From: a virus
Taxonomy: Duplodnaviria > Heunggongvirae > Uroviricota > Caudoviricetes
DNA length: 8,827 bases
Reading direction: 5' to 3' (one strand)
Virus record (IMG/VR): IMGVR_UViG_2667527792_000005
This document shows, one piece after another, positions 1 through 7,412 of this stretch. How positions within the stretch are numbered: the first letter of the stretch is position 1; every line of letters begins with the position of its first letter. Position numbers and translations under genes: made by a program. The notes under the pieces are model-generated. The model had not been told where the DNA came from. It made no database searches and saw nothing but the letters and a program-made list of their open reading frames with translations.

Positions 1-101
1 ATACTTTGCTGCATCCGCGTTGATCCCTGATGCAGGGTGTTCCACCACTCCACGGAGTAATGAATAATCGGCAGATTCACCACGCCAATCAGCACCAGGG
101 T
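1..101 (-). pseudogene. ccmC: Internal shard of a ccmC-like gene (cytochrome c heme exporter CcmC); runs off the window start and is cut at ~99-104
   Basis: Minus-strand translation [32 protein letters not shown] matches the C-terminal WWNTLHQ region of E. coli CcmC as I recall it. Immediately 5' of this (plus >101) the translation becomes [26 protein letters not shown], which does not match CcmC, with in-frame stops beyond. Confidence 0.55.
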
Positions 102-212
102 CGCGCCAATGACCTCGCCGGTCTTAACAATTTGCACATTCCCGTCGCTCATCAAGTTTTTCGCATCAGATCCCATGATTTATTCCTTTGCTGCATCTGT
201 GTGCCTTTATTG

Positions 213-2069
213 CTACCTAAGTGTAAAGGCTACGGAGGATTTATCCACGACAGATTTGAGATGGTGGCAAACAACTCTGTTTACTATGTCTTCTACGATT
301 ACGGGATCTGCGACTTCGCCAGTTTCATCACTGCAATCGCGATGCGGATCGCTGCCAGCATTCTCATTGTGCGGATGTTCAGCGCCTTCCATTTCCTCCG
401 GATCATTTTCCTTAGCTTCAACCTGACTCTCTTCATCGAATGTTTCCTGGTATGTTGCGTCGCCCATCACCGCACCACAGTCAGGGCAGTTATCCCCGCC
501 AGTCTGGCCGCAGGCATTGCAGGCTATTTCCGGTTCCTGTTGCACTACTGGCTCAGGTTGATTCATATCTGGGCTGGTTTTTTCCGTTTCTGGCTGGTTC
601 TGGTACACACAATCGCGAGTCTGGATCCCCTTTACCCATTTCGGATCGTTCGGGTCGCTAATTCCGTCAACAAATTCACCACGTGATGCAGCAAGCAATT
701 TATCGGCATCGACAGGATTTTTTGATGGAATGTTTTTCCGGGCTTCATGGAGTTCTGCCCGCAGTTCCTGATATTTCGCATCAACAGAATTTACCTGTGA
801 CTGAGCATCCAGCGGCTGCGTGTCCTGATGATGTTCAGTTGCGTCCGGTTCCATTGTTTCAGCCTCTCCCTGTTCAACTGCCGTTGTTCCAGATGGTTGC
901 GGTTTTTCTTCATCATCCTGTTTTCCTTCTTCTGTTACTCGCTGCGGCATCGGGGCAGAGGAGCGACCGCAGGCAATATCCACGATTTCCGGATCAGGGT
1001 TGGCATGATCGGTTTCAGTCAGTACTTTGTTCAGATATTCAGTGACGTGCGCGGGGATGACCTCGATCCCAATTGGTGCTTCTTTTACGGACGCAACCAC
1101 GATGGCGCGGGAATAATCCAGCCCGCCAGGCATGGTGATGAATTTGTCGCGGAAAACAGAAAAGGGCGGTTTATTTTCAGCGATAATTTCCTCAATGCGT
1201 TTAGCGTGTGCCGGATGAAGGTTATAGATGTCCAGATCCATTGAACGGGCCAGTACGCCAGTGGCTACGTCGCGCGCCAGTGACGTCAGATCGTGTACGA
1301 AACCTTCGCCGCGATCGGTGAGGTTTCCGCCGCCAGCATTAGCACCGGAAGCCGTGCAAGTGATGTGTGAAACACGATTACCCTTCATCCACTCTTTTGT
1401 CAGCAGTCCTCGATCGGTGTAGTCAGCGTTCAGGTATGCTTCGAAAAAAGCAGTTATCAGTCCCAGGTTTGAATTACCAGGATTAGGGAAAACTTTGTCA
1501 GTGTCACGAACCAGTTTGTGGAGTTCGCGAATTTCCAGCGGGTCGAGCAGGCTGGTTTTGTGGGAAACAGCCAGGGCAGTAACAGCCGGTAGTTCTTCAG
1601 CCCGAGCAATGTGTAATGCCTGGAGTCCGTCGCGTGAAACGTGCGTTACCGGTTTTTCGCTGCCGTGTTGAGCAAGCCAACGAATGGGCAGTTCCTGGCC
1701 AGAAATTGGGAGTAGCATATTCTCCTCAATCTCAGTCATGTCTTCGCCGTTGACGTTGGTATTGCCTTGATAGTGAGCGTTGTCTGGTGCTGCTCCCGGT
1801 TTTAGTTCCCATGTCATGGAGTCTTTGCTGAGTTGATAGCGTTCACTCCAGGTAAAATCGATCTCACCTTCAGCGGGCAGGTCATTAACGACAGGAAAAT
1901 TCGTGGCAACAGCTTTAAAATAGCTGCTCAGTTTTTTACCTGACTTAACGATCAGGTAGTCCAGAGTGGCACAGGTCGATTCAAAATCGTTGCTTGCCCA
2001 CAGGACGACGTCAGGTTCACCGGATGATTTTTTCGCTTTCCGTAACAGGAAGAGTGGTTTTGTGCTCAT
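213..2069 (-). CDS. recE: recE 5' portion: Rac-prophage exodeoxyribonuclease VIII N-terminal region. ORF is 618 codons versus 866 aa for the K-12 protein as I recall it; the C-terminal nuclease domain is absent. Similarity to RecE appears to end near plus 285; the last ~23 codons ([23 protein letters not shown]) look foreign
   Basis: Six-frame track ORF; N-terminus [30 protein letters not shown]... recognised as RecE; sits directly downstream of racC-ydaE-kilR in the known Rac order; acidic low-complexity middle and a [16 protein letters not shown]ys4 motif. Downstream in the same frame are stops at 213-215, 207-209 and 180-182. Confidence 0.8.
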
Positions 2070-2142
2070 TGTTTTTTAACCTCAACTCAGATTAAAATTC
2101 GTTTTGTTCAGTGAATGATCTTGCCGGATACACACTGTTCAT

Positions 2143-2163
2143 AGCCTGCGCCATACGCAGGCT
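2143..2163 (-). promoter_or_regulatory. Perfect 8-bp-stem hairpin (agcctgcg-ccata-cgcaggct) in the racC-recE intergenic region; not followed by a U-tract on the minus transcript
   Basis: Inverted repeat read directly from the sequence at 2143-2150 and 2156-2163, lying between the racC stop (2171) and the recE start (2069). Confidence 0.4.
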
Positions 2164-2170
2164 ATTTCTT

Positions 2171-2446
2171 TCAGATTTCACCTTTTAATTTCATTGCAAT
2201 TAGAGTTGCCAGAAATTCGGCTTTTTTTTCTGCGGGCAGATTCTTTCCGATATGCACCAGGCACATTTTTTTGACACCTTCATCAAGTGTTTTTACGTTG
2301 CCTGATGGACCATCGATATCAACCACAGTGAATGGGGTTTCTTTATTTTCTGTTTTAATTACGTAGCCAATGCGCTTTCCTTCCAGATTCACCTCGTGAA
2401 CAATGTCATCGGTAGTTACAACAGTGGCTTCATAATTGGTAATCAT
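2171..2446 (-). CDS. racC: RacC, Rac prophage small protein (91 aa)
   Basis: Translation MITNYEATVVTTDDIVHEVNLEGKRIGYVIKTENKETPF...MKLKGEI, 91 aa, matches RacC as recalled. Start chosen at the ATG preceded by AAGGAG with 6-nt spacing (plus 2444-2446), not the longer track ORF starting at 2494. Confidence 0.8.
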   Translation of the reverse strand: MITNYEATVVTTDDIVHEVNLEGKRIGYVIKTENKETPFTVVDIDGPSGNVKTLDEGVKKMCLVHIGKNLPAEKKAEFLATLIAMKLKGEI

Positions 2447-2520
2447 GTTTTTCTCCTTAATTAAGGTTGAGCGAATACCTGCCATTTCTGGCATAAATTC
2501 AGTTTCGAATAGTCAATTAA

Positions 2521-2691
2521 TTAAAGTTCATGTGCCATCTGGTCTTTTTCGGCACAAGCTTCACTGCAATATTTTCTCGGTTCGTCTTTTGATAAAATCC
2601 CGTGCATGAAGTGAAGCATTCTTTCAATAGCTTTGCTTTCTTCAACGTCTTTTTTGCAAAGGTGGTAAGCACATTTTATTTTCTTAGTCAT
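2521..2691 (-). CDS. ydaE: YdaE, Rac prophage small Cys-rich (zinc-binding-like) protein, 56 aa
   Basis: Minus-strand translation [56 protein letters not shown] (56 aa). Its ATG (2689-2691) overlaps the kilR stop (2691-2693) by 1 nt. Missed by the >=60-aa ORF track. Confidence 0.75.
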   Translation of the reverse strand: MTKKIKCAYHLCKKDVEESKAIERMLHFMHGILSKDEPRKYCSEACAEKDQMAHEL

Positions 2692-2912
2692 CACCATGAC
2701 TCCGCCTTTACAGGTAAACCATCACGACCGAGGAAGACTTTAATCATGCGGTCAGTAATGAATGTTTTTGTGGTCAGGTTACGAATATATAGTTTTCGCT
2801 TTTTAATATTGTTTGCCGAGGCAATATATGTCCGGCCTTCATGAAGAACATAATCGCCAGGAGTCACACACTGACGTGGTATTTCATCAGTTCCGAAGTG
2901 ATGTGCAATCAT
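2691..2912 (-). CDS. kilR: KilR, Rac prophage killing protein (cell-division/FtsZ inhibitor), 73 aa
   Basis: Translation [73 protein letters not shown]. Start at the second ATG (2910-2912), which has GGAG 8 nt upstream; the track ORF starts 4 codons earlier. Confidence 0.85.
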
Positions 2913-3353
2913 AATTATCTCCATTTTTACAAATGAACTTTGTTGATGCGGTGTCTGGTGCCTCCAGGTGACTGCAACCAGTTAACAATTACAGTCGGCT
3001 TTCCCACCCAAACCAATAAGGACTAACATGACTTTTAACTGTGCCACGTGCGCTTAGCCGCATTCACCGCATCACAAAATTCACTTTAAAAAGGGCGGAC
3101 ATCAGCCGAACTTCAAGAAAAAAACTGATGCCGCCAGGACTACACACAGCAATGTCGTTATTTACAACCGGAGGCGCACTCCCTCCATTTAAATTTAACA
3201 GACAAGACCGACTCTTTATGGATATCGGAAATGCGCCTTCGTGTTGTGCCCGGTTTTATTTCACCACCTCCGGGCTTCGGTGGTCTCGGCTATACCCCTA
3301 CAGCGAGAGCTTGTGTTAACATTTCAATACCCTTACAGTTGAGAGTTATTGAT

Positions 3354-3842
3354 ATGTTGGATGTATTTACTCCATTGTTGAAACTTTTTGCTAACGAGCC
3401 ACTCGAAAGACTTATGTATACGATTATCATTTTTGGTCTCACTCTCTGGCTGATACCGAAAGAGTTTACTGTCGCATTCAATGCTTATACTGAAATACCT
3501 TGGCTCTTTCAGATTATCGTTTTTGCCTTTTCTTTCGTGGTCGCCATTTCCTTCTCAAGATTGCGAGCACATATTCAAAAGCATTATTCATTACTACCAG
3601 AGCAACGAGTATTGCTTCGTTTATCTGAGAAAGAAATCGCTGTATTTAAAGATTTCCTTAAAACAGGAAATCTTATTATCACTTCTCCTTGCCGTAACCC
3701 GGTTATGAAAAAATTAGAACGGAAGGGCATCATTCAACATCAGAGTGATAGCGCAAACTGTTCTTATTATCTCGTCACCGAAAAATACTCCCATTTTATG
3801 AAGTTATTCTGGAACAGCAGGAGTAGACGTTTTAATCGTTAG
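3354..3842 (+). CDS. sieB: SieB, superinfection exclusion protein B (Rac prophage), 162 aa, two predicted transmembrane helices
   Basis: Translation MLDVFTPLLKLFANEPLERLMYTIIIFGLTLWLIPKEF...FWNSRSRRFNR. Start at ATG 3354 with GAGAG upstream; the track's 203-aa version (3231) is an unsupported N-terminal extension. Confidence 0.85.
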   Translation: MLDVFTPLLKLFANEPLERLMYTIIIFGLTLWLIPKEFTVAFNAYTEIPWLFQIIVFAFSFVVAISFSRLRAHIQKHYSLLPEQRVLLRLSEKEIAVFKDFLKTGNLIITSPCRNPVMKKLERKGIIQHQSDSANCSYYLVTEKYSHFMKLFWNSRSRRFNR

Positions 3843-3994
3843 CTTACTGTGTGCTTCTCCAACCATCGGCGCGCACCAGTTTCGGTTTTAAATGTTTTGC
3901 TTTTGGTATACGTCATGGCAGTGAACGTTCCATCCTGGTTGGGGAACACGCCGCACACCAGGGATTCGTTGTTGCCGAGGTCGATTTTTTGCAT
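3839..3994 (-). CDS. ydaF: YdaF, Rac prophage small protein, 51 aa
   Basis: Minus-strand translation MQKIDLGNNESLVCGVFPNQDGTFTAMTYTKSKTFKTETGARRWLEKHTVS. Convergent 4-bp overlap with the sieB stop. Below the track size cutoff. Confidence 0.7.
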   Translation of the reverse strand: MQKIDLGNNESLVCGVFPNQDGTFTAMTYTKSKTFKTETGARRWLEKHTVS

Positions 3995-4004
3995 TTTGCG
4001 AATC

Positions 4005-4139
4005 TCACATCTTGTTGCTACGTATAGCGACTTCTGCCTGCCAGAGATCCCAGTCGTTGCTGCGTAAAGCCTGCACAGCCTGGTTGTAAGTGATACCGCA
4101 ACAATCCATCAAATACTGAACTACTTCGTAATGCACCAT
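4005..4139 (-). CDS. ydaG: YdaG, Rac prophage small protein, 44 aa
   Basis: Minus-strand translation MVHYEVVQYLMDCCGITYNQAVQALRSNDWDLWQAEVAIRSNKM, preceded by AGGGGAGAG 5 nt upstream. It is the 3' end of the track ORF 4005..4361, whose upstream part is read-through across N's. Confidence 0.7.
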   Translation of the reverse strand: MVHYEVVQYLMDCCGITYNQAVQALRSNDWDLWQAEVAIRSNKM

Positions 4140-4152
4140 CTTATCTCTCCCC

Positions 4153-4201
4153 TTAACGCCGGGTGGCGGAACTAACTGCTGCACTGCAAAATTTGAATCC
4201 C
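4153..4201 (-). pseudogene. racR: Possible 3' tip of racR (Rac repressor), cut by NN at 4202-4203
   Basis: Minus-strand frame ends ...GFKFCSAAVSSATRR-stop immediately upstream of the ydaG RBS. Identity inferred from Rac gene order only; the sequence is not recognised from memory. Confidence 0.25.
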
Positions 4202-4203
4202 NN
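4202..4203. other. Two ambiguous bases (NN) at the breakpoint between the Rac block and an unrelated shard
   Basis: Literal n characters; the sequence context changes completely across them. Confidence 0.9.
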
Positions 4204-4285
4204 CGCGTCGGAGAGGTAATTTTTGCCGGTTTCGCCGTCGCTGAGCGCCAGTTGCCACTCATCGCCCGCCGGGTAAAGACCAAGG
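4204..4285 (-). other. Unassigned 82-bp coding-like shard (minus frame LGLYPAGDEWQLALSDGETGKNYLSDA)
   Basis: Open minus-strand frame with protein-like composition, but no start or stop inside the shard; bounded by NN on one side and the garR shard on the other. Confidence 0.3.
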
Positions 4286-4458
4286 TGAGCGGCGGTGAAC
4301 CGAAAGCCATCGACGGTACGCTGTCAGTGATGGTGGGCGGCGACAAGGCTATTTTCGACAAATACTATGATTTGATGAAAGCGATGGCGGGTTCCGTGGT
4401 GCATACCGGGGAAATCGGTGCAGGTAACGTCACCAAACTGGCAAATCAGGTCATTGTT
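4286..4458 (+). pseudogene. garR: Internal shard of garR (tartronate semialdehyde reductase, 3-hydroxyisobutyrate dehydrogenase family), ~57 codons
   Basis: Translation VSGGEPKAIDGTLSVMVGGDKAIFDKYYDLMKAMAGSVVHTGEIGAGNVTKLANQVIV matches GarR, not GlxR. The conserved DAP preceding VSGG is absent in all frames upstream, so the 5' breakpoint is at ~4285/4286; the 3' end is at N 4459. Confidence 0.7.
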
Positions 4459-4459
4459 N

Positions 4460-4594
4460 AAGACGTTGTTCCAGTGTTTTAATACTATGGCTAATGGCGG
4501 ACGAGGATAAGCCTAATTCATCGCCCGCTGCACGAAAGCTTTGATTACGGGCCACGGCAAAGAAAGTGGCAAAGTCAGACATATTCATCCGCAT
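4460..4594 (-). pseudogene. ycaN: 5' end (45 codons, HTH domain) of the LysR-family regulator ycaN, truncated at N 4459
   Basis: Minus-strand translation MRMNMSDFATFFAVARNQSFRAAGDELGLSSSAISHSIKTLEQRL is a typical LysR N-terminal helix-turn-helix; divergent from ycaK as in K-12. Confidence 0.75.
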
Positions 4595-4617
4595 TAGTGA
4601 AAATCCTTCATTAACTC

Positions 4618-4643
4618 ATCCTGAATCATCACGTTTACAGGAT
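4618..4643. promoter_or_regulatory. Inverted repeat ATCCTG-N14-CAGGAT in the ycaN/ycaK divergent intergenic region; candidate LysR-type binding site
   Basis: Arms read directly at 4618-4623 and 4638-4643; located in the 99-bp divergent promoter region between a LysR regulator and its neighbour. Confidence 0.35.
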
Positions 4644-4693
4644 TATGCCGCCTGCGTAAAGTGCGCTCCAGAACTTAACGTGGAGGTAAAATT

Positions 4694-5284
4694 ATGCAGT
4701 CTGAACGTATTTATTTGGTATGGGCCCATCCTCGTCATGATTCATTGACCGCACATATTGCTGATGCGATCCATCAGCGGGCAATGGAGCGGAAAATACA
4801 GGTGACGGAACTCGATTTATATCGGCGTAATTTCAACCCGGTGATGACGTCGGAAGATGAACCAGACTGGAAGAATATGGATAAACGTTATTCTCCAGAG
4901 GTTCATCAGCTTTATTCAGAGCTGCTTGAGCATGACACGTTAGTGGTGGTTTTTCCTCTCTGGTGGTACAGCTTCCCGGCAATGCTAAAAGGATATATTG
5001 ACAGAGTATGGAATAATGGGCTGGCTTATGGAGATGGGCACAAATTACCATTCAATAAAGTTCGTTGGGTGGCGCTGGTTGGAGGAGACAAAGAATCATT
5101 TGTCCAGATAGGCTGGGAAAAAAATATAAGCGATTATTTAAAAAATATGTGCAGTTATCTTGGTATTGAAGATGCCGATGTCACTTTCTTGTGTAATACA
5201 GTGGTATTCGATGGGGAAGAACTTCACGCGAGCTATTATCAGTCGTTATTATCTCAGGTACGGGATATGGTAGATGCACTATAA
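4694..5284 (+). CDS. ycaK: YcaK, flavodoxin-like NAD(P)H:quinone oxidoreductase family protein, 196 aa
   Basis: Track ORF; GGAGG 8 nt upstream of the ATG; translation MQSERIYLVWAHPRHDSLTAHIADAIHQRAMERK...; neighbour of pflA as in K-12. Confidence 0.9.
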   Translation: MQSERIYLVWAHPRHDSLTAHIADAIHQRAMERKIQVTELDLYRRNFNPVMTSEDEPDWKNMDKRYSPEVHQLYSELLEHDTLVVVFPLWWYSFPAMLKGYIDRVWNNGLAYGDGHKLPFNKVRWVALVGGDKESFVQIGWEKNISDYLKNMCSYLGIEDADVTFLCNTVVFDGEELHASYYQSLLSQVRDMVDAL

Positions 5285-5323
5285 GATGTGTTAAAAACGC
5301 TGTAGCAGAATGAAGTGCGGAAT

Positions 5324-5357
5324 AAAAAAGCGGCAACTCAATAAAGTTGCCGCTTTA
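5324..5357. terminator. Bidirectional rho-independent terminator between convergent ycaK and pflA
   Basis: aaaaaa-GCGGCAACT-caataa-AGTTGCCGC-ttt: 9-bp perfect stem with an A-tract on one side and a T-tract on the other. Confidence 0.75.
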
Positions 5358-5365
5358 CGGGGAAA

Positions 5366-6106
5366 TTAGAACATTACCTTATGACCGTACTGCTCAAGAA
5401 TGCCTTTCACGCGTTCCATGGTCTCTTTCTTAGGTGGTTTAACACCGTCGAGTTTGTACTCTTCACCCATTGCCACCCATTTGTGTTTGCCCAGCTCGTG
5501 GTAGGGGAGGAGTTCGATTTTCTCAACGTTGCCCATATCACGGGTAAATTCACCGAGGCGATGCGCTGAATCGTCATCGTCAGACCAGCCTGGGACAACA
5601 ACGTAGCGGATCCACACCTTCACATTTTTGTTCGCCAGATATTTGGCGAACTCCAGCGTGCGGTGGTTGGAAACTCCAACCAGATTTTGGTGGATCTCGT
5701 CGTTCATCTGTTTGAGATCGAGCATTACCAGGTCGGTTACTTCCAGCAGTTCATCAATCACCGGATCGTAACGACGAACAAAACCGTTGGTGTCCAGACA
5801 GGTATGAATGCCTTCTTTTTTGCAGGCGCGGAACCAGTCACGAACAAACTCAGCTTGTAGGATTGCCTCACCGCCGGATGCGGTAACGCCGCCGCCGGAA
5901 GCGTTCATAAAGTGGCGATAGGTCACCACCTCTTTCATTAAATCTTCAACGGTAACTTCTTTACCGCCATGCGTATCCCAGGTGTCGCGGTTATGACAAT
6001 ACAGGCAGCGCATCAGGCAGCCCTGGAAAAAGGTGATAAAGCGAATACCTGGGCCGTCTACGGTTCCACAGGATTCAAAGGAGTGAATGCGACCAATAAC
6101 TGACAT
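5366..6106 (-). CDS. pflA: PflA, pyruvate formate-lyase activating enzyme (radical SAM), 246 aa
   Basis: Translation [41 protein letters not shown]... with the CxxxCxxC radical-SAM motif. Start at ATG 6104-6106 (GGAGAAA upstream), 9 codons inside the track's longer ORF. Confidence 0.95.
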
Positions 6107-6229
6107 TGCGGTGTTTCTCCAGATGTGGCCCATCTGAGGCCGTGTTGGTGCGCAGCTCGAAGGCTACGTCGAGTCTGTTTTGGCAGTCACCTTAAAGTAT
6201 AGATAGCTGACAAAAAAGGCTCTCGTGCT

Positions 6230-6258
6230 AAAAAAGGCCCCACTTTCGTGGAGCCTTT
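6230..6258 (-). terminator. Candidate rho-independent terminator downstream of pflB (minus transcript GGCUCCAC-gaaa-GUGGGGCC then U-run)
   Basis: 8-bp stem with one G-U pair followed by six T on the transcribed strand, ~40 nt after the pflB stop. Confidence 0.6.
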
Positions 6259-6297
6259 ATTGTACGCTTTTTACTGTACGATTTCAGTCAAATCTAA

Positions 6298-7357
6298 TTA
6301 CATAGATTGAGTGAAGGTACGAGTAATAACGTCCTGCTGCTGTTCTTTAGTCAGCGAGTTGAAACGTACTGCGTAGCCAGATACACGGATGGTCAGCTGC
6401 GGATATTTTTCCGGGTTTTCCATCGCGTCGAGCAGCATTTCACGGTTCATCACGTTAACGTTCAGGTGCTGACCACCTTCGATGGATGCTTCGTGGTGGA
6501 AGTAACCATCCATCAGACCAGCCAGGTTGGTCTTACGAACTTCGTCGTCTTTACCCAGTGCGTTCGGAACGATAGAGAAGGTGTAGGAGATACCATCTTT
6601 AGCGTAAGCAAACGGCAGTTTAGCAACGGAAGTCAGAGACGCTACAGCACCTTTCTGGTCACGACCGTGCATCGGGTTAGCACCCGGTCCGAACGGCGCG
6701 CCAGCACGACGACCGTCTGGGGTGTTACCAGTTTTCTTACCATACACAACGTTAGAAGTGATGGTCAGAACAGACTGAGTCGGGATAGCGTCACGGTAGG
6801 TGTGCAGTTTCTGAATTTTCTTCATGAAACGTTCTACCAGGTCAACAGCCAGGTCATCTACACGCGGATCATTGTTACCAAACTGCGGGTATTCGCCTTC
6901 GATTTCGAAGTCGATAGCCAGACCGTCTTCGTCACGAATCGGTTTAACTTTCGCATATTTGATTGCAGACAGGGAGTCAGCAGCAACGGACAGACCAGCG
7001 ATACCACACGCCATGGTGCGGATAACGTCACGGTCGTGCAGCGCCATCAGAGAGGCTTCGTAGCTGTACTTGTCGTGCATGTAGTGGATGATGTTCAGTG
7101 CAGTGATGTACTGTTTAGCCAGCCAGTCCATGAAGTGATCCATGCGCTCCATCACTTCATCATAGTTCAGGACATCGCCTTTGATCGGTTCAGACTTCGG
7201 ACCAACCTGCATTTTCAGTTTTTCGTCAACGCCGCCGTTGATTGCGTACAGCATGGTTTTCGCCAGGTTTGCACGCGCACCGAAGAACTGCATTTGTTTA
7301 CCAACGATCATCGGGCTTACGCAGCAAGCAATAGCGTAGTCATCGTTGTTGAAGTCC
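6298..7357 (-). CDS. pflB: pflB 3' portion: C-terminal 353 codons of pyruvate formate-lyase, truncated at N 7358
   Basis: Translation ...[31 protein letters not shown]...[29 protein letters not shown] includes the Cys-Cys active site and the glycyl-radical RVSGYAV motif (Gly codon at 6376-6378). The open frame continues right up to the N, after which unrelated sequence follows. Confidence 0.93.
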
Positions 7358-7358
7358 N
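7358..7358. other. Ambiguous base (N) at the breakpoint between pflB and unrelated sequence
   Basis: Literal n; pflB frame is intact to 7357, then the context changes. Confidence 0.9.
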
Positions 7359-7412
7359 GAGGATTTTGTTATTGAAATTCTTTGCGCCACCAATGCTCTC
7401 TTTGTATCCCGC

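Follow-up and report, generated by a model that had tools for sequence, protein, structure and literature searches.

The closest counterpart of the DNA considered here is the cryptic prophage Rac of Escherichia coli K-12 MG1655, in which the interval NC_000913.3 1417488-1419518 carries the genes b1351-b1355 together with kilS (b4833). At low dose the KilR protein encoded there disrupts Z-rings, and at high dose it acts on MreB as well (PMC12482147). Expression of kilR is normally silenced by NusG/Rho-dependent termination, and repression of nusG by OxyS leads to read-through and to a division arrest that aids DNA repair (PMC5793797). KilS is a small RNA (sRNA) that was predicted from RNA interaction by ligation and sequencing (RIL-seq) and verified on northern blots, with an independent transcription start and yncL as its target (Bar et al. 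2021, PMC8175672). A second system of this kind, the ydfA-ydfB-ydfC-dicF-dicB operon of prophage Qin (Kim), resembles that of Rac in combining a DUF1391 gene, an sRNA, a homologous leader and a small cell-division inhibitor. Here we describe a block of Rac genes (racC, ydaE, kilR, sieB, ydaF and ydaG) at positions 2171-4201 of the IMG/VR virus record IMGVR_UViG_2667527792_000005, the whole 8,827-nt stretch of which is referred to below as the window, and compare it with these systems and with related loci in IMG/VR.

Identity of the block with K-12 Rac

When the block was aligned to MG1655, 2030 of its 2031 nt were the same (99.95%), the sole mismatch lying at 3184; over the larger Rac piece to which it belongs (284-4201) there are three mismatches in 3918 nt, two of them in recE and the third that at 3184, and zero gaps. 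The RacC, YdaE, KilR, SieB, YdaF and YdaG proteins are all identical to those of MG1655, with no internal stops, and the order of the genes, kilS included, is that of the MG1655 annotation (b1351-b1355), as are their strands and spacing. The original prediction, made from the letters alone, had placed these six genes here as a module colinear with K-12 Rac. Its coordinates and gene order are borne out by transfer of the MG1655 annotation and the colinearity by the alignment, on which neither poor identity to Rac nor a different order was seen, and its assignments to gene families are upheld by NCBIfam, Pfam and PHROGs matches above their cut-offs. It had left to a later comparison whether this copy is of K-12 type or a variant: the block is of K-12 type, and is equally that of the chromosome of enterotoxigenic E. 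coli (ETEC) ATCC 43896 (NZ_CP024278.1), which shows 0 mismatches over the 3918 nt of 284-4201. Within this piece no difference between the window and the Rac-like prophage of ATCC 43896 is detectable, and the same 100% identity is seen in upwards of 25 further complete E. coli genomes.

We put at about 0.95 the probability that the block is a K-12-type copy of the Rac early-left (recombination-side) accessory block, derived from an E. coli that also carries a heat-labile toxin gene, and nothing contradicts its identification as Rac. Some match to the 2031-nt block is found in 4420 of 5426 complete E. coli genomes, at least 80% of it in one place in 1366 of them; 1288 records match it at 99% or more, and the Rac-like phages vB_EcoS-666R9, 673R7 and 613R10 carry the whole of it at 99.7-99.8%. 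The block, its genes and its K-12 alleles are all already known, and ordinary: this is among the best-known prophage DNA of E. coli, roughly one complete genome in four has it unchanged, and every gene in it is annotated.

The features of the Rac piece, with coordinates carried over from the MG1655 annotation via the gap-free alignment and used alongside the list of open reading frames, are as follows.

284-2069, minus strand: recE (exodeoxyribonuclease VIII), 5' 1786 nt only, the seam at 283/284 cutting off the 3' 815 nt
2141-2165, no strand assigned: palindromic hairpin, perfect over 10 bp, between racC and recE
2171-2446, minus strand: racC, 91 aa, function unknown; identical to K-12 b1351; NCBIfam NF007306 (206 bits, cut-off 171); phrog_4778
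2521-2691, minus strand: ydaE, 56 aa, Cys/His-rich; identical to K-12 b4526; NCBIfam YdaE_coli NF041288 (86.1 bits, cut-off 35)
2691-2912, minus strand: kilR, 73 aa; identical to K-12 b1352; inhibitor of FtsZ (and MreB) by published K-12 work; NCBIfam PRK11354 (159.1 bits, cut-off 92, residues 1-73 of 73); phrog_294 "Kil protein for bacterial septation inhibition" (E 7.5e-35)
2913-3087, minus strand: 5' leader of kilR, homologous to the Qin dicF-dicB leader
3088-3185, minus strand: kilS, 98-nt sRNA; MG1655 annotates b4833 at the equivalent position, 97 of 98 nt being the same
3192-3200, minus strand: candidate extended -10 promoter for KilS
3309-3862, plus strand: sieB cassette, 554 bp, comprising sieB and 45 bp upstream, between ydaF and KilS; found in related phage contigs as a whole or not at all
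3354-3842, plus strand: sieB, 162 aa, superinfection exclusion protein B; identical to K-12 b1353; Pfam PF14163 (109.4 bits, gathering score 26); phrog_6399
3839-3994, minus strand: ydaF, 51 aa, DUF1391, homologue of Qin YdfA; identical to K-12 b4527; Pfam PF07151 (98.3 bits, gathering score 27.3)
4005-4139, minus strand: ydaG, 44 aa, uncharacterised; identical to K-12 b1355; phrog_14709
4140-4201, minus strand: leader 5' of ydaG, 62 nt, at the end of which the Rac piece ends

On the minus strand the order is therefore ydaG, ydaF, KilS, kilR-ydaE, racC and recE, with sieB on the opposite strand between ydaF and KilS. To judge by this arrangement the minus-strand genes would form a leftward operon. 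The stop codon of kilR and the start codon of ydaE overlap by 1 nt, which suggests that their translation is coupled, and a scan for consensus promoters and terminators turned up no intrinsic terminator in the interval that separates ydaE from racC. The description of this module as intact holds for the coding sequences of the six genes, but not beyond them, since racR and the promoter-proximal leader lie outside the piece and recE is cut at a seam. Similarly, the genes originally listed are all present, but the KilS sRNA at 3088-3185 had been overlooked.

Composition of the window and limits of the Rac piece

The window (1-8827) consists of ten or more E. coli fragments that are unrelated to one another and are joined head to tail, as listed here.

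1-99: ccmC
100-283: ydhQ
284-4201: Rac
4204-4283: malF
4284-4457: garR
4460-7357: ycaN'-ycaK-pflA-pflB'
7359-7409: 51-bp piece, no source named
7410-7610: otsA
7611-8720: eltA region from a plasmid, with 99.7% identity to plasmids found in ETEC B7A and E275a
8724-8827: ileS

The seams fall at 99/100, 283/284, 4201/4204, 4283/4284, 4458/4460, 7357/7359, 7409/7410, 7610/7611 and 8720/8724, with N bases at five of them and none at the others. Restriction sites (Sau3AI, NlaIII, HindIII and others), which were looked for as a trace of ligation or proximity ligation, were not found at the seams. Since the window is chimeric, its neighbouring genes give no context and findings that depend on neighbourhood are not trustworthy; that the module is "carried" in a genomic setting does not follow from the window. 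The plasmid-derived fragment at 7611-8720 holds the gene for the heat-labile enterotoxin A subunit, eltA, with its upstream region; a seam cuts it near the eltA 3' end, and eltB is absent.

The right-hand limit of the Rac piece, 62 nt upstream of ydaG, is likewise not a biological boundary, 4201 being followed directly by the NN of a seam (4202-4203) and then by an unrelated malF fragment. In K-12 terms racR would start 246 nt beyond the end of the piece, and both racR and the early-left promoter are outside it. With respect to MG1655 Rac, then, the window copy differs by one single-nucleotide polymorphism (SNP) in the block, at position +2 of KilS, and by the artificial seams that sever racR and the 3' end of recE. 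Beside ydaG, ATCC 43896 has a non-K-12 immunity region, with a 420-nt gene for a helix-turn-helix protein in the place of racR.

Several points set limits to the reading of the piece and of its sRNA that is given here. The neighbours in a chimeric window do not reveal the source replicon. The promoter and the repressor, whether racR or an alternative immunity region, are outside the piece. K-12 and ATCC 43896 remain homologous for only 98 bp past 4201 and then pass into different immunity regions; with the point of divergence beyond 4201, the regulator of the window copy is therefore not readable from the piece. Finally, the score of KilS against the DicF model, 39.1 bits, is below the Rfam gathering score of 48.

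KilS and the kinship with the Qin dicB operon

Within the 441 nt that separate kilR from sieB lies kilS, 176 nt upstream of kilR and on the same strand. The 3' half of KilS (3093-3148) folds as a DicF-like hairpin that ends in a U-tract terminator, and it matches the Rfam DicF model RF00039 over positions 1-52 of 52 with an E value of 4e-7; as the score is below the gathering score, KilS is regarded as a diverged relative, and filing it as DicF was rejected. Rfam holds no KilS family. The context is also DicF-like, KilS standing upstream of a prophage division-inhibitor gene in an operon of the ydfA/ydaF type. In both prophages the sRNA ends in a GGCGG...CCGCC hairpin followed by a U-tract, whereas KilS, at 98 nt, has a further hairpin at its 5' end and a promoter of its own, and DicF, at 53 nt, is processed from the operon transcript (PMC5069750). 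Comparison of the flanking regions gave 79% identity between the kilR leader (window 2932-3098) and the dicF-dicB leader of the Qin locus L003 (2930-3094), and ydaF is 87.5% identical to Qin ydfA at the nucleotide level and 86% at the amino-acid level. Because of this match to the DicF model, together with the identity of the leaders and of ydaF and ydfA, we infer that the Rac block and the Qin ydfA-dicF-dicB operon are positional homologues, KilS taking the place of DicF and KilR that of DicB. The inhibitor proteins themselves are unrelated, KilR and DicB giving no hit to each other by BLASTP; sequence similarity between YdaG and YdfB was not found either, and the slot occupied by sieB in Rac holds ydfB-ydfC in Qin. 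As a separate observation, the kilR leader (2905-3091, minus strand) gives a sub-threshold match to Rfam STnc100 (28 bits, gathering score 47).

The predicted fold of KilS has one hairpin at the 5' end and, before a run of UUUUU, a long terminator hairpin. The consensus scan mentioned above listed zero minus-strand signals in the block: it missed the KilS terminator, with its long loop and bulged stem, and, as it needs a -35 element, it did not list the candidate KilS promoter, which was picked out by reading the sequence. This candidate, TGT-TAAATT, would occupy -15 to -7 relative to the annotated 5' end, its hexamer extending from -12 to -7. Position 3184, where the SNP lies, corresponds to KilS +2, which is A in the window and U in K-12 and in 22 of 22 KilS-type copies from IMG/VR; the A allele is common to the complete E. 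coli genomes that match the piece at 100%, ATCC 43896 among them, and in the minimum-free-energy fold the base sits in the unpaired 5' end.

For possible pairing with ftsZ, plain RNAduplex energies were dropped as uninformative: against the 5' region of ftsZ, neither KilS nor even the validated DicF gave values better than those of shuffled sRNAs. An accessibility-corrected scan placed DicF 24-37 on ftsZ -13 to +1 at -5.0 kcal/mol, in agreement with the region reported previously (PMC5069750). For KilS the same scan gave -1.1 kcal/mol for the homologous loop (61-74) and -3.3 kcal/mol for a stretch of the 5' hairpin complementary to the Shine-Dalgarno sequence (13-21). As this predicted pairing is weak, a role of KilS on ftsZ is not supported by the modelling.

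Combinations of sRNA and inhibitor in IMG/VR

To place KilS among its relatives, IMG/VR was scanned for the shared sRNA core TGGCGGNATCAGTTTT, which returned 120 loci: 87 of DicF type, 22 of KilS type and 11 other. A DicF-type sRNA is followed by DicB at 76 of its 87 loci and by a relative of KilR (81% amino-acid identity) at three (L039, L041 and L071), and a KilS-type sRNA by KilR at 21 of 22 loci and by DicB at the remaining one (L083). The sRNA and the inhibitor protein thus mostly go together at these loci, but they can recombine. The four natural recombinants indicate a modular slot of sRNA plus inhibitor that is common to Rac-like and Qin-like prophages. One further locus, L089, has a third variant of the sRNA, in which the core is again the same (…TTTGGCGGAATCAGTTTTTGCTTCGCTACTGCTCTTCCGCCC…); on one side of this sRNA is a homologue of ydaF and on the other, about 1.1 kb downstream, a KilR of 77% identity.

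The kinship of KilS and DicF links the division-inhibition modules of Rac and Qin, and concerns the Rac family generally rather than this window. In the literature searched, no paper was found that names KilS and DicF together. Faubladier and Bouche are nevertheless said to have probably noted a dicF-like sequence in Rac as early as 1994, and the kinship and the exchangeable cassette may already be on record in the literature of that year.

Alternative explanations

The block might derive not from a K-12-like cryptic Rac but from an inducible Rac-like phage, or from an intact Rac-like prophage whose immunity region is of another kind. The three phages that carry the whole block, and the non-K-12 immunity region beside ydaG in ATCC 43896, whose match to the piece is 100%, are in keeping with such an origin, to which we would give distinctly less than even odds: the piece ends before the region that distinguishes a phage or intact prophage from cryptic Rac, and where the match is 100% the prophage sits in the chromosome next to ttcA, the site that Rac has in K-12. 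A more radical proposal would be that the "module" is an artefact of concatenation or mis-assembly with no real locus behind it. The make-up of the window invites this suspicion, ten or more pieces, drawn from a plasmid and from loci scattered over the chromosome, having been joined at arbitrary points, with N bases at five seams and no restriction sites. However, 284-4201 forms one contiguous stretch, all 3918 nt of which occur unchanged in real chromosomes; the block is therefore genuine and only the junctions are artificial, and an artefact extending to the block itself seems to us very improbable. We retain the identification of the block as a K-12-type copy of the Rac early-left region.

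The standing of KilS is more evenly balanced. It may be no more than the leader of kilR with an attenuating terminator, that is, a cis-acting relic of dicF without a role in trans, an interpretation that in our estimate falls only a little short of an even chance. Its position directly upstream of kilR, its intrinsic terminator, the weak predicted pairing with ftsZ and the fact that RIL-seq recorded only three interactions for it (PMC8175672) all agree with such a relic; on the other hand, KilS is a discrete RNA on northern blots and was scored as an sRNA with the target yncL (PMC8175672), and its sequence is highly conserved across diverged Rac-like loci. At the other extreme KilS would be a functional paralogue of DicF, forming with KilR, as DicF does with DicB, an exchangeable division-arrest cassette of sRNA plus small protein, and acting in trans on envelope or division mRNAs, possibly that of ftsZ, alongside KilR. 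We consider this unlikely.

Proposed mechanism

The anatomy of the block is shown here, and the mechanism proposed for it comes from the literature on K-12, the genes of which are identical. Leftward transcription would start at the racR-controlled immunity region outside the piece, and Rho/NusG-dependent termination would normally keep it out of kilR. A drop in NusG, caused by OxyS under oxidative stress, would then allow read-through and synthesis of KilR, which would block assembly of the FtsZ ring and, at higher dose, MreB, with a transient division arrest as the outcome. Inhibition of the FtsZ ring has been shown for K-12 KilR, with which the protein of the window is identical (PMC12482147, PMC5793797). 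KilS would be transcribed from a promoter of its own, a short way upstream of kilR, and would end at the DicF-like terminator. SieB, a predicted two-helix membrane protein made in the lysogen, would abort superinfecting lambdoid phages.

The sieB cassette

The presence of sieB in the module was predicted correctly, but the gene lies on the strand opposite to its neighbours and, to judge by related loci, does not belong with them. It converges on ydaF, which it overlaps by 4 nt, and is found at 11 of the 22 KilS-type loci in IMG/VR. At loci L058 and L115 homology to the window runs from 4201 to 3863 and resumes from 3308 to 2171, about 46 bp replacing 3309-3862, and other related loci (L070 and L083 among those noted) hold another insert in the slot or a sieB allele of 27% identity. 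As it is replaced or missing as a unit among related loci, sieB is a discrete, reverse-oriented cassette in a variable slot, separable from the leftward operon.

SieB of phages lambda and P22 aborts superinfecting lambdoid phages. The Rac protein resembles these in family (PF14163), in its N-terminal hydrophobic helices and in the early-left location of its gene, and an exclusion phenotype may be expected of it. The N-terminal half of Rac SieB contains two hydrophobic stretches, at about residues 24-42 and 45-72, and 19-residue Kyte-Doolittle windows above 1.6 start at residue 24 and at residues 45-54.

Other features of the Rac piece

No PADLOC model matches any of the six block proteins. YdaE, for which the MG1655 annotation reads zinc-binding protein, has sub-threshold matches to the Rtr1/RPAP2 zinc finger and to prokaryotic metallothionein. 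YdaG is probably a three-helix bundle; it also gives a marginal match to a UBA-like domain, Pfam UBA_4 (24.1 bits, gathering score 21.8).

Between racC and recE, the hairpin at 2141-2165 lacks a T-run on the minus (operon) strand, so that no canonical intrinsic terminator is present there, but it might have some relevance to the normal silence of recE. On the plus strand only, a T-rich tail makes the same hairpin terminator-like, and no gene enters from that side. The truncated RecE matches NCBIfam PRK09709, a profile of 877 positions, over residues 1-595, and differs from the K-12 protein by R238C and D455A (window 706 and 1358), both of which are also present in ATCC 43896.

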